NCBI RefSeq assembly: GCF_013167455.1
Contig: NZ_CP038328.1
Length of the DNA stretch: 64,000 nt
Direction: 5' to 3' (one strand)
Source of the DNA: Escherichia coli O157:H7
GTDB taxonomy: Bacteria; Pseudomonadota; Gammaproteobacteria; Enterobacterales; Enterobacteriaceae
Positions 54,001 to 57,000 of this stretch are shown here, piece after piece. Each line of letters starts with the position of its first letter. Within the stretch, counting starts at the first letter, position 1. Made by a program: the position numbers.

Positions 54001-57000
54001 GTCTTTAAAACAGTTCCGTAATAAACATCCGATTTCATTCTTATATGCCAGCAATGGCAGGGATTTGTTCACCCTTAAATCTGTAATGAGGTAAAACAAA
54101 ATGAGTAAAGTCTTTATTTGCGCCGCCATTCCGGACGAACAGGCAATAAAGGAAGAAGGTGCAGTCGCTGTAGCCACTGCCATTGAAGCCGGTGATGAAC
54201 GTCGCGCCCGCGCAAAATTTCACTGGCAATTCCTGGAGCATTATCCGGCTGCTCAGGACTGCGCTTATAAATTTCTTGTTTGCGAGGATAAACCCGGTAT
54301 ACCCCGCCCTGCCCTCGATTCCTGGGATGCTGAATATATGCAGGAAAACCGCTGGGATGAGGGGGCTGCTTCCTTTGTCCCGGTTGAGACTGAATCCGAT
54401 CCGATGAACGTCGCTTTTGACAAGCTGGCCCCTGAAGTACAGAACGCTGTCATGGTTAAGTTCGACACATGTGAAAACATCACCGTTGATATGGTGATTA
54501 GCGCGCAGGAATTGTTGCAGGAAGACATGGCAACATTCGACGGACATATCGTTGAAGCGTTGATGAAAATGCCAGAAGTTAACGCCATGTATCCGGAGCT
54601 TAAGCTGCATGCCATCGGGTGGGTTAAGCATAAATGTAAGCCTGGTGCCAAATGGCCCGAAATTCAGGCAGAAATGCGCATCTGGAAAAAACGTCGCGAA
54701 GGTGAACGCAAGGAAACCGGAAAATACACGTCTGTTGTTGATCTCGCCCGCGCCAGAGTCCACCGACAGCACACTGAAAACTCAGCAGAAAAAATCCCCC
54801 CTGTCACTGCAGTCATTCGTCGCGAATATAAGCAGACATGGAAAACACTGGATGACGAACTGGCCTACGCTCTCTGGCCTGGTGATGTGGATGCCGGAAA
54901 CATTGACGGCAGCATCCATCGCTGGGCAAAAAATGAAGTTATCGACAACGACCGCGAAGACTGGAAGCGTATCTCGGCATCAATGCGCAAACAGCCTGAT
55001 GCCCTTCGCTACGACCGCCAGACTATTTTTGGCCTTGTCCGTGAACGTCCGATCGACATTCACAAAGACCCTGTGGCACTGAACAAATACATTACTGAAT
55101 ACCTGACTACAAAGGGCGTGTTTGAAGATGAAGGAACAAATCAGAGCGCAACTGACACTCTCTCGTCGCCAGTACCAGAAACTGATGCAGTGGAAACGGC
55201 AATTCCGGACAACGAAAAAACCGAATGCAAAGTGGAAGTCGAACCATCTGTAGAGCGTGAGGGGCCGTTCTACTTCCTCTTCACCGACAAGGATGGCGAA
55301 AAATACGGTCGCGCAAACAAACTTTCTGGTCTGGATAAGGCGCTGGCTGCCGGGGCTACTGAAATCACAAAAGAAGAATATTTTGCCCGAAAAAATGGCA
55401 CATACACAGGCTTACCGCAAAATGCAAATACCGCACAAAATTCTGAACAACCAGAACCGGTAAAAGTTACCGCTGACGAAGTAAAGAAAATTATGCAGGC
55501 AGCCAATATCAGCCAGCCTGACGCCAATCAGTTGCTCGCCGCATCACGTGGTGAATTTGTTGCAGGGATTAGCGACCCGAATGATCCGAAATGGGTGAAG
55601 GGGATTGAAACCCGCGATTCTGTGAACCAGAACCAGCAAGAAACGGAACAGAACGACCAGAAAGCGGAACAAAACAGCCCAAATACGCAACAAAACGAGC
55701 CAGAAACGAAACAACCTGAGCCAGTAGCGCAACAGGAACCGGAAAAAGTCTGCACCGCCTGCGGTCAGACCGGCGGCGGCAACTGCCCTGATTGTGGCGC
55801 GGTGATGGGCGACGCAACATACCAGGAAACATTCGATGAAGAGTATCAGGTTGAAGTTCAGGAAGATGATCCGGAGGAAATGGAAGGCGCTGAACATCCA
55901 CACAAGGAGAACACTGACGGCAATCAGCATCACGATAGCGATAATGAAACTGGCGAGACGGCAGATCACTCAATTAAGGTGAACGGTCATCAAGAAATCA
56001 CATCCACCAGCAGGACGTGTGACCATCTAATGATCGACCTTGAAACCATGGGAAAAAATCCTGATGCCCCGATCATCTCAATAGGTGCAATATTTTTCGA
56101 TCCGCAAACCGGAGATATGGGACCGGAATTTAGTAAGACTATCGATCTGGAAACTGCTGGCGGGGTCATTGATCGGGACACCATTAAATGGTGGCTTAAG
56201 CAATCACGCGAAGCGCAATCTGCCATTATGACCGATGAAATCCCGTTAGATGATGCACTATTACAATTGCGGGAATTTATCGACGAAAACTCCGGTGAAT
56301 TTTTTGTTCAGGTCTGGGGAAATGGAGCCAACTTCGACAACACGATTTTGCGCCGTTCATACGAACGGCAGGGGATCCCCTGCCCGTGGCGTTACTACAA
56401 CGATCGCGATGTACGCACAATCGTTGAGCTGGGGAAAGCCATAGACTTCGATGCCAGAACGGCTATTCCATTCGAAGGTGAGCGCCATAATGCACTTGAT
56501 GACGCCCGTTACCAGGCAAAATACGTTTCAGTTATCTGGCAAAAACTGATCCCGAATCAGGCTGATTTTTAATGTTCAACCCCGGTCGTTGCCCACCAGC
56601 TATAGTGGCGGCGACCATGATTAGCGAACGACGCTCATGGCAAGACTTATTCTGCTCACTGAGTGGGCAAAAGAGGAATTCAGTGAACCGGTCCCAACTC
56701 CGAGTACGTTAAGTAAATACGCTAAAGCCGGAATGATATTTCCTCTCCCCAAAAAAGTTGGAAGACGCTGGCGAGTGGATCCGCAAGCTCGCTTTGTCGG
56801 AATGGTAAACAAGCCGGAGGTGATCGCCACAGATCACCCTGCTTTGAAGAGGATACTGGAAGATGGCGCGCCCGCGAAAATATAAAACCGATGTTCCGGG
56901 ATTATCTCCGTATTTTGACAAAAGAAATAACAAAGTTTACTGGCGTTACAGGCATCCCATAACAGGCAAAAATCACGGTCTCGGCAGTATTGACCAGAAA

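Follow-up and report, generated by a model that had tools for sequence, protein, structure and literature searches.

A YdfE/RecE-related scaffold joined to a predicted DEDDh 3'-5' exonuclease occupies the recombination slot of an Escherichia coli O157:H7 prophage without a detectable annealase

A survey of the recombination (Rec) modules of lambdoid phages (PMC12315714, Genome Res 2025) reported, in the sections considered here, DnaQ-like nucleases among the components of these modules, including one from epsilon34 encoded in close packing with canonical Rec genes. Table 1 of the survey lists, as class B, a 'Tritos' type of four phages that possess a nuclease but no single-strand annealing protein (SAP or SSAP, hereafter annealase), no SSB, and no anti-RecBCD function, and whose top strands carry 7-21 Chi sites, for the most part grouped at the right end. 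Those same sections contain no description of a scaffold fused to a DnaQ-type nuclease and no test of its function. Here, we describe a gene, referred to as exo, that encodes a protein of this architecture within a 64,000-nucleotide (nt) stretch of DNA from Escherichia coli O157:H7 (NCBI RefSeq assembly GCF_013167455.1, contig NZ_CP038328.1; the whole stretch is referred to as the window). The locus has the composition of the Tritos type, with a nuclease only, no SAP, SSB or anti-RecBCD gene, and a wealth of Chi sites; the nuclease-only module has already been published as the Tritos type, and the arrangement is non-canonical but neither rare nor new. We regard the identity and architecture of the Exo protein as very likely to be as set out below.

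54101..56572 (+), exonuclease gene (exo), 823 amino acids (aa), an open reading frame (ORF) from ATG to stop; RefSeq WP_000048551.1, 'exonuclease' (PGAP)
56006..56569 (+), predicted DEDDh 3'-5' exonuclease domain, aa 636-823, from Pfam, a PDB match to T4 DexA (8KEL), alignment, and conservation in 81 sequences

An earlier note on this DNA, made from the sequence alone, had described a large exonuclease at these coordinates, and an ORF scan together with Pfam, NCBIfam and PHROG comparisons bore out both the coordinates and the description; PHROG 2082 'exonuclease' covers 823/823 positions of the protein. The note had also read the C-terminal ~190 aa as a DEDDh-type nuclease instead of the fold of lambda Exo or RecE, and had suggested domain annotation as a check. 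Pfam PF16473 (Rv2179c-like 3'-5' exoribonuclease) matches aa 642-813 with an E value of 2.4e-67 (226.5 bits against a cut-off of 27) and is covered at positions 2-177 of its 177, the match to RNase_T is weak, and no standard RecE nuclease fold was annotated. The best PDB match of the C-terminal 188 aa is T4 DexA (8KEL/8KEN, E 1.4e-6), and the catalytic residues D646, E648, D746, H796 and D801 align with D7, E9, D119, H186 and D191 of DexA. The residues of Exo I (DxE), Exo II (D) and Exo III (Hx4D) are all present and do not vary in an alignment with T4 DexA among its members, with each of the five catalytic residues kept in 80-81 of 81 sequences. A search with the C-terminal 437 aa of RecE (BLASTP and phmmer) detected no RecE-type PD-(D/E)XK domain in Exo, while the positive controls, P0133 and P0213, were both matched. 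Collectively, these results agree with the reading of the nuclease in the earlier note and assign aa 636-823 to the DEDDh/DnaQ superfamily, Rv2179c/DexA sub-family, with a two-metal active site that is complete as judged from the alignment.

RecE (exonuclease VIII of the Rac prophage) is found in the same operon slot and is likewise a large protein, sharing with Exo a Zn-ribbon/acidic module and a weakly related helical core. However, the RecE nuclease is of the PD-(D/E)XK type with 5'-3' polarity, whereas 3'-5' polarity is expected of the DEDDh domain in Exo, and relatives with a RecE nuclease have RecT downstream, where exo has xis. Based on the domain assignment, Exo is probably a DNA 3'-5' exonuclease, which would remove nucleotides from free DNA 3'-OH ends, with single-stranded DNA or 3' tails as the preferred substrates, as for DexA. 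Because of this polarity, it could not make the 3' tails needed by Red or RecET. It appears, then, that the lambdoid 'exo' slot can hold an exonuclease whose expected polarity is opposite to that of lambda Exo and RecE, and can do so without an annealase. Exo is widely misnamed 'exodeoxyribonuclease VIII', which is misleading because the name implies RecE-like 5'-3' chemistry, and this matters both for annotation and for the mining of recombineering tools.

56637..56885 (+), excisionase gene (xis), the first gene 3' of exo (Pfam Exc, PGAP)
56863..57993 (+), integrase gene (int), at the prophage end adjoining ompW (PGAP)

The earlier note had reported no annealase gene between exo and xis and had proposed a synteny survey for one elsewhere in the prophage. 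The exo stop codon and the xis start are separated by 64 nt, so no gene fits between them. PGAP annotation of the whole prophage in two strains contains no annealase, and none was found by Pfam or PHROG among the small or hypothetical ORFs near exo or among the DUF1627, DUF968 and DUF1133 genes. In tblastn searches of the 64-kb window and 80 related loci (E<=1e-4), no match was obtained for RecT (two sequences), lambda Bet, P22 Erf, the Rad52-family SSAP of mEp235, or the class-c domain described below, nor for lambda Exo, Gam, Abc2 or SSB, while the same search recovered dicB and ydfD in 77/80 loci and xis/int in 57-60 of 80. The 80 loci derive from IMG/VR, with up to 9 kb of flank, and this survey is not phylogenetically independent because only close relatives with 92-100% identity were returned. 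Tritos and HannyBb, two plaque-forming phages with complete genomes, have the same module and no annotated annealase. Comparison by hhalign of an N-terminal profile with RecT, Bet, Erf, Sf6-type Rad52 and class c gave probabilities <1.5%, but this test had low power because the positive control failed too. Divergent annealases can evade sequence searches, and other lambdoid prophages of O157 could supply Red-type functions in trans. As far as these searches reach, the slot is held by a DEDDh exonuclease with no annealase detectable in the prophage or the 80 loci and, as the earlier note had maintained, it is not a canonical Red or RecET pair.

The closest described counterpart is Tritos gp27, which has 93.9% nt identity over the whole exo gene, the same cI-DicF-dicB-ydfD-exo-xis-int order, and a Chi-rich right arm; the copy examined here differs in that it resides in an effector-carrying O157:H7 prophage at ompW. 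More distantly, stand-alone DnaQ-like exonucleases of the modules found in epsilon34, Sf6 and mEp235 have 58-60% identity to aa 636-823 and are likewise encoded in the early-left operon near xis/int. Those proteins are unfused, at ~182-190 aa, and are flanked by a Rad52-family SSAP, SSB and Abc2, whereas the Exo domain is joined to 635 aa of scaffold and lacks such neighbors. In mEp235 the order is Rad52-family SSAP, SSB, exonuclease (58% identical to aa 636-823), Abc2, xis, int. In total, 696 phage records carry the DEDDh domain.

Stand-alone homologues, as well as many database entries of ~180 aa, start at a MIDLET motif that corresponds to M644 of Exo (window position 56030), and an AGGA lies ~14 nt 5' of this internal ATG. 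It is conceivable that a scaffold-free nuclease is initiated internally at M644.

56004..56011 (-), Chi (GCTGGTGG) at the boundary between the part similar to RecE and the DEDDh domain (codons ~635-637); also in Tritos, HannyBb and 79/80 loci
56593..56600 (-), a further Chi of the same orientation, in the gap that separates exo from xis, from a sequence scan

To score the orientation of Chi, the minus strand of the window was taken as the lambda top strand, with cos near 35,800, as inferred from gene order. The right arm (35,800-58,000) contains six copies of GCTGGTGG in the putatively active orientation, at 36403, 40596, 41416, 41733, 56004 and 56593, and three in the other orientation, with ~0.24 per strand expected from base composition; the 35.8-kb left arm contains none. 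This pattern reproduces the signature of the Tritos class, namely at least 4 active-strand Chi clustered toward the cos-proximal right arm.

Based on the data presented above, we propose, with a probability of roughly 0.55, that Exo is a tethered 3'-5' exonuclease in a phage that relies on host RecBCD and RecA. Strand exchange would be left to the host RecBCD-Chi-RecA pathway, a reliance that fits the Chi-rich right arm, and the tethered exonuclease would trim the 3' ends or flaps of intermediates in replication and recombination, with the scaffold bringing it to its substrate. The more specific suggestion of an accessory role in host-dependent recombination or replication is tentative. A link to recombination is indicated by the stand-alone orthologues, which sit inside Rad52-SSAP/SSB/exo/Abc2 Rec modules such as that of mEp235, and by the scaffold itself, which in other proteins is fused either to a Rad52-fold domain or to a RecE nuclease, in the latter case with RecT following. 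The occupation of the exo slot by such a nuclease, with no annealase, supports the view, put forward recently, that many lambdoid phages hand recombination over to host RecBCD and Chi.

Several points weigh against this proposal. A pro-recombination role is not obvious, because 3'-5' exonucleases usually inhibit homologous recombination, and one-gene Rec modules have been called 'somewhat suspect' (both from the considered sections of PMC12315714). An exoribonuclease gave the Pfam family its name, and a preference for DNA or RNA is not readable from sequence. The Chi counts come from one prophage, with base composition as the only basis for the expected number. Targeting by the scaffold is pure inference, a Foldseek search of the PDB having returned no structural relative for the N-terminal part. 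Finally, our search of the literature on YdfE and prophages found no functional or experimental work on YdfE or the Exo protein.

Given the match to DexA, we also considered whether Exo might serve a purpose other than recombination. T4 DexA and EcD ('HREX') belong to the same DEDDh sub-family as Exo, and all five catalytic residues align. DexA is, however, only 26% identical to the Exo domain and has specific loops that are absent in Exo, and both DexA and EcD are stand-alone proteins of ~190-227 aa. The structure of T4 DexA, the closest solved relative of Exo, has been determined, and an E. coli homologue, EcD, is reported to degrade only DNA containing 5-hydroxymethylcytosine (5hmC) and to protect against T4 (PMC12153337, NAR 2025). 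By analogy, Exo could be a nuclease of superinfection exclusion or defence, leaving unmodified host DNA intact and breaking down the 5hmC DNA of incoming phages. The int-proximal genes of lambdoid early-left operons are often exclusion genes, which is consistent with such a function, and most bacterial DexA homologues are found in Escherichia (PMC12153337); many of these are probably proteins like Exo, as that paper never mentions prophages. Nevertheless, Exo has Y766 and A780 at the positions of the 5hmC-recognition residues W152 and D169 of DexA, a difference of moderate weight since the alignment is gapped there, and the DexA tetramerization residue D90, which is Ala in EcD, is retained in Exo as D718 and is invariant in 81 sequences. 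EcD is, moreover, a different, stand-alone protein; it (HAK9828821.1) starts with MIDTET and ends with TIPETYD, as known here from cloning primers only, and a MIDTET start was found in none of the homologues retrieved. PADLOC models gave zero matches for Exo or its small neighbors, exo lies in a repressor-controlled operon in which the promoter signal is not above background (scans for promoters and terminators around exo gave nothing above shuffled sequence), and the orthologues are located in Rec modules. Taken together, a defence function, though plausible by homology, seems unlikely.

Homology to DexA, which is documented to participate in host DNA degradation, might equally suggest a scavenging nuclease that supplies nucleotides during lytic growth. 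This would explain neither why the scaffold is large and RecE-like nor why the position in the Rec slot is conserved. Moreover, we know of no wholesale degradation of the host chromosome by temperate lambdoid phages, and we consider scavenging very unlikely.

The N-terminal part of Exo was divided into the following units.

54101..54388 (+), N-terminal alpha/beta domain, aa 1-96, the start of YdfE_N; AlphaFold2 predicted local distance difference test (pLDDT) ~90, Pfam PF27430
54413..54718 (+), helical domain, aa 105-206; pLDDT 89-95, with variable columns less frequent than in the linkers
54833..55120 (+), helical domain, aa 245-340, with a core weakly common with the RecE N-terminus; pLDDT ~93, BLASTP
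55262..55405 (+), small beta-hairpin/helix domain, aa 388-435, with a GPFYFLF...GRANK motif; pLDDT 92-95
55511..55975 (+), RecE-common module, aa 471-625, comprising helices, a Q/N/E-rich linker, a Zn-ribbon and an acidic tail; BLASTP, NCBIfam
55751..55795 (+), putative zinc-ribbon CxxC-x7-CxxC, C551, C554, C562 and C565, read from the sequence

The AlphaFold2 model of aa 1-640 has a mean pLDDT of 72, with confident units split by low-confidence linkers, and these linkers are the most variable columns among the 81 sequences. The CxxC-x7-CxxC ribbon (aa 551-565) was modelled with moderate confidence, and its four cysteines are kept in 80-81 of 81 sequences. The earlier note had called the N-terminus RecE-like, and this is strictly correct for only part of it. 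In BLASTP and phmmer comparisons with the RecE of Rac-SA53, the only close match is at aa 474-621, which is 74% identical to RecE aa 471-611; aa 262-336 match RecE aa 295-368 weakly by BLASTP (27% identity, E 2e-4), and sequence comparison found aa 1-~230 to be unrelated to RecE. Likewise, the NCBIfam RecE equivalog NF007259 scores 278.7 bits against a cut-off of 1269, and aligns only aa 452-625 with model positions 445-602. Precomputed Pfam assignments for the exact protein are YdfE_N and YdfE_C (aa 1-~470) and the Rv2179c-like domain, but not the Exonuc_VIII/RecE N-terminal family. In intermediate proteins, however, matches to the N-terminal parts of Exo and RecE overlap. Outside the two matching segments, the description as RecE-like is not strictly accurate, and aa 1-~470 are classified from sequence as a YdfE_N/YdfE_C scaffold distantly related to RecE. 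The namesake of these Pfam families, K-12 ydfE in the Qin prophage, has the same dicF-dicB-ydfD context and corresponds to the first 256 codons of exo (93% identity to aa 1-256), being truncated by IS2; nothing from aa ~257 on is present, so it has no nuclease. A separate candidate for a K-12 remnant, exoD of DLP12, was ruled out, as tblastn gave no match to it and only ydfE of Qin matched.

A HMMER search with aa 1-640 against 1.84 billion representative proteins returned only 254 matches, indicating a small family. Mapping of modules on 51 long representatives revealed two N-terminal sub-types, YdfE-type and RecE-type, with a common core, followed by a mid module and at least 4 different C-termini.

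Class a, C-terminus a DEDDh exonuclease: P0121 and P0123 (YdfE-type); P0129, P0139, P0141 and P0250 (RecE-type)
Class b, C-terminus a RecE PD-(D/E)XK nuclease: P0133, P0199, P0208 and P0231 (YdfE-type); P0213, P0252 and P0267 (RecE-type)
Class c, a ~275-aa C-terminal domain without a Pfam match: P0131, P0136, P0188 and others
Class d, a further C-terminal domain of no assigned kind: P0126 and P0260

The GPFYFLF...GRANK motif is kept in classes a, c and d. The class-b protein P0133 has a RecT homologue encoded 3' of it, while the class-a protein P0129, on a Rac backbone, is followed directly by xis-like and int genes without recT. The gene for the class-c protein P0131 has a Gam-like gene and Gp157 as its neighbors, and neither a nuclease nor an annealase is separately encoded there; P0131 has a weak Pfam Rad52_Rad22 match on an invariant KKSLTDA..KALS.LGF helix. 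Since the C-terminal classes differ and the genetic context follows the C-terminus, the scaffold appears to carry, alternatively, one or the other half of a classical recombination pair or a 3'-5' exonuclease. Based on these associations, the YdfE/RecE N-terminus could be an interchangeable 'recombination hub' for RecE (with RecT), for the DEDDh exonuclease, or for a Rad52-fold annealase (probably the 'RecE-2' proteins), the DEDDh version being a single protein that works with host RecBCD-Chi-RecA in a hybrid phage-host pathway, where it might dock, for instance, on RecBCD, SSB or DNA ends. As a whole, this scheme is speculative and somewhat unlikely. The function of the RecE N-terminal domain is not known, although full-length RecE improves linear-linear recombination (PMC11611040), and the three alternative C-terminal partners provide a handle on the function of this region.

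The mapping also yielded several additional observations. The class-d C-terminal module (P0126, P0260; PHROG 26058) is ~220 aa long, has no Pfam match, and ends in 'QQLTIAALxGxCANP', a sequence that also terminates P0134, which consists of a RecE-type N-terminus and the mid module. In P0203 (703 aa), a RecE-type N-terminus is interrupted inside the Zn-ribbon and joined in frame to the last two-thirds of RecT, which resembles a natural fusion of recE and recT by deletion. As in exo, the class-c gene L008 has a Chi at a module junction, in this case at codon ~470. The presence of Chi at module junctions may be relevant to domain shuffling or may be a coincidence, and the conserved Chi at the domain junction of exo might promote module swapping.

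A different concern is that Exo could have lost its function, as a fusion in decay that remained in a cryptic prophage once the RecE nuclease domain and recT were gone. The IS2-cut ydfE of K-12 would be a precedent for this, and the 'somewhat suspect' status of one-gene Rec modules would agree with it. The exo ORF, however, is intact in 80/80 related loci, at 821-830 aa, and both the catalytic residues and the Zn-ribbon cysteines are conserved. Relative to Tritos and HannyBb, the ratio of nonsynonymous to synonymous substitution rates (dN/dS) is about 0.2 and low in every region of exo, at 0.22-0.24 for the N-terminal part, 0.26-0.32 for the mid module and 0.14 for the nuclease domain. The gene also occurs in plaque-forming phages, Tritos and HannyBb, and was matched in 4799/5426 complete E. 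coli genomes, with a coverage of >=80% in 3532; the number of places per genome has a median of 2 and a maximum of 10. These data indicate that exo is under purifying selection and is not a decaying remnant, an explanation that is largely refuted and that we consider extremely unlikely. Exo, an uncharacterized protein, is encoded by one of the most widespread prophage genes of E. coli, of which a genome often has several copies.

The remaining features of the locus are as follows.

53632..53820 (+), dicB, upstream operon partner of exo (Pfam DicB, PGAP); upstream in 77/80 loci
53817..54008 (+), ydfD-like DUF1482 gene, directly 5' of exo (Pfam DUF1482)
54089..54092 (+), putative Shine-Dalgarno sequence GAGG, 8 nt 5' of the exo ATG, from sequence inspection

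The exo gene has ompW-yciCBA-tonB-kch on one side and, on the other, a lambdoid prophage that carries nleA, nleH1-2 and nleF, which identifies the ompW-integrated, Sp9/CP-933P-type prophage of O157:H7. Copies of exo with 100% identity are present in many other chromosomes of E. coli O157:H7. The local order is a cI-like repressor, two small ORFs and ydfC, a DicF-like small RNA (sRNA), dicB, the ydfD-like gene, exo, xis and int. The cI-ydfC-DicF-dicB-ydfD-exo-xis-int order matches that of phages Tritos and HannyBb and of K-12 Qin, and the stretch from DicF into exo is 94% identical at the nt level to dicF-dicB-ydfD-ydfE of K-12 Qin. The exo gene is in the exo/recE slot of the early-left operon.

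The proximity of DicF bears on the possibility that Exo is instead an exoribonuclease like Rv2179c, acting on RNA 3' ends, for instance in the processing or turnover of DicF, or degrading host or defence RNA or oligonucleotide signals. Mycobacterium tuberculosis Rv2179c, the namesake of PF16473, is a 3'-5' exoribonuclease that we take to be a bacterial housekeeping-type single-domain protein. Although it belongs to the same Pfam family as the Exo domain, it was not detected by phmmer against the PDB at E<=1 and is, on that basis, more distant than DexA. The name of the best-matching Pfam family, the RefSeq label '3'-5' exoribonuclease' on many fragments, and co-transcription with the DicF sRNA locus in 77/80 loci are all consistent with an RNA substrate. 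On the other hand, DexA, the characterized phage member of the family, is a DNase, genes for the stand-alone orthologues have SSAP/SSB genes on one side and Abc2 on the other, and the other partners of the scaffold are DNA-recombination domains, so that an exoribonuclease appears quite unlikely.

The DicF sRNA variant itself lies at 53408-53457 (+) and is ~89% identical to K-12 dicF; its Rfam RF00039 score of 43.5 bits (E 2.7e-8) is below the gathering threshold of 48, and it was recovered by a relaxed search only. A weak STnc100 match at 53446-53651 overlaps it. Three conserved small ORFs, at 52455-52862 (+), 51842-52141 (+) and 52840-53073 (-), are located between the repressor and DicF, and none of the three has a Pfam, PADLOC or named PHROG function; those of 135 aa and 99 aa stand where K-12 Qin has ydfA/ydfB. 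Lastly, a 1310-bp IS1203-like element of the IS3 family is present at 44471-45780 and is 99.9% identical to a copy in strain 17B6-2, where the element is inside the prophage lysozyme gene, so that the insertion site differs between otherwise identical prophages.

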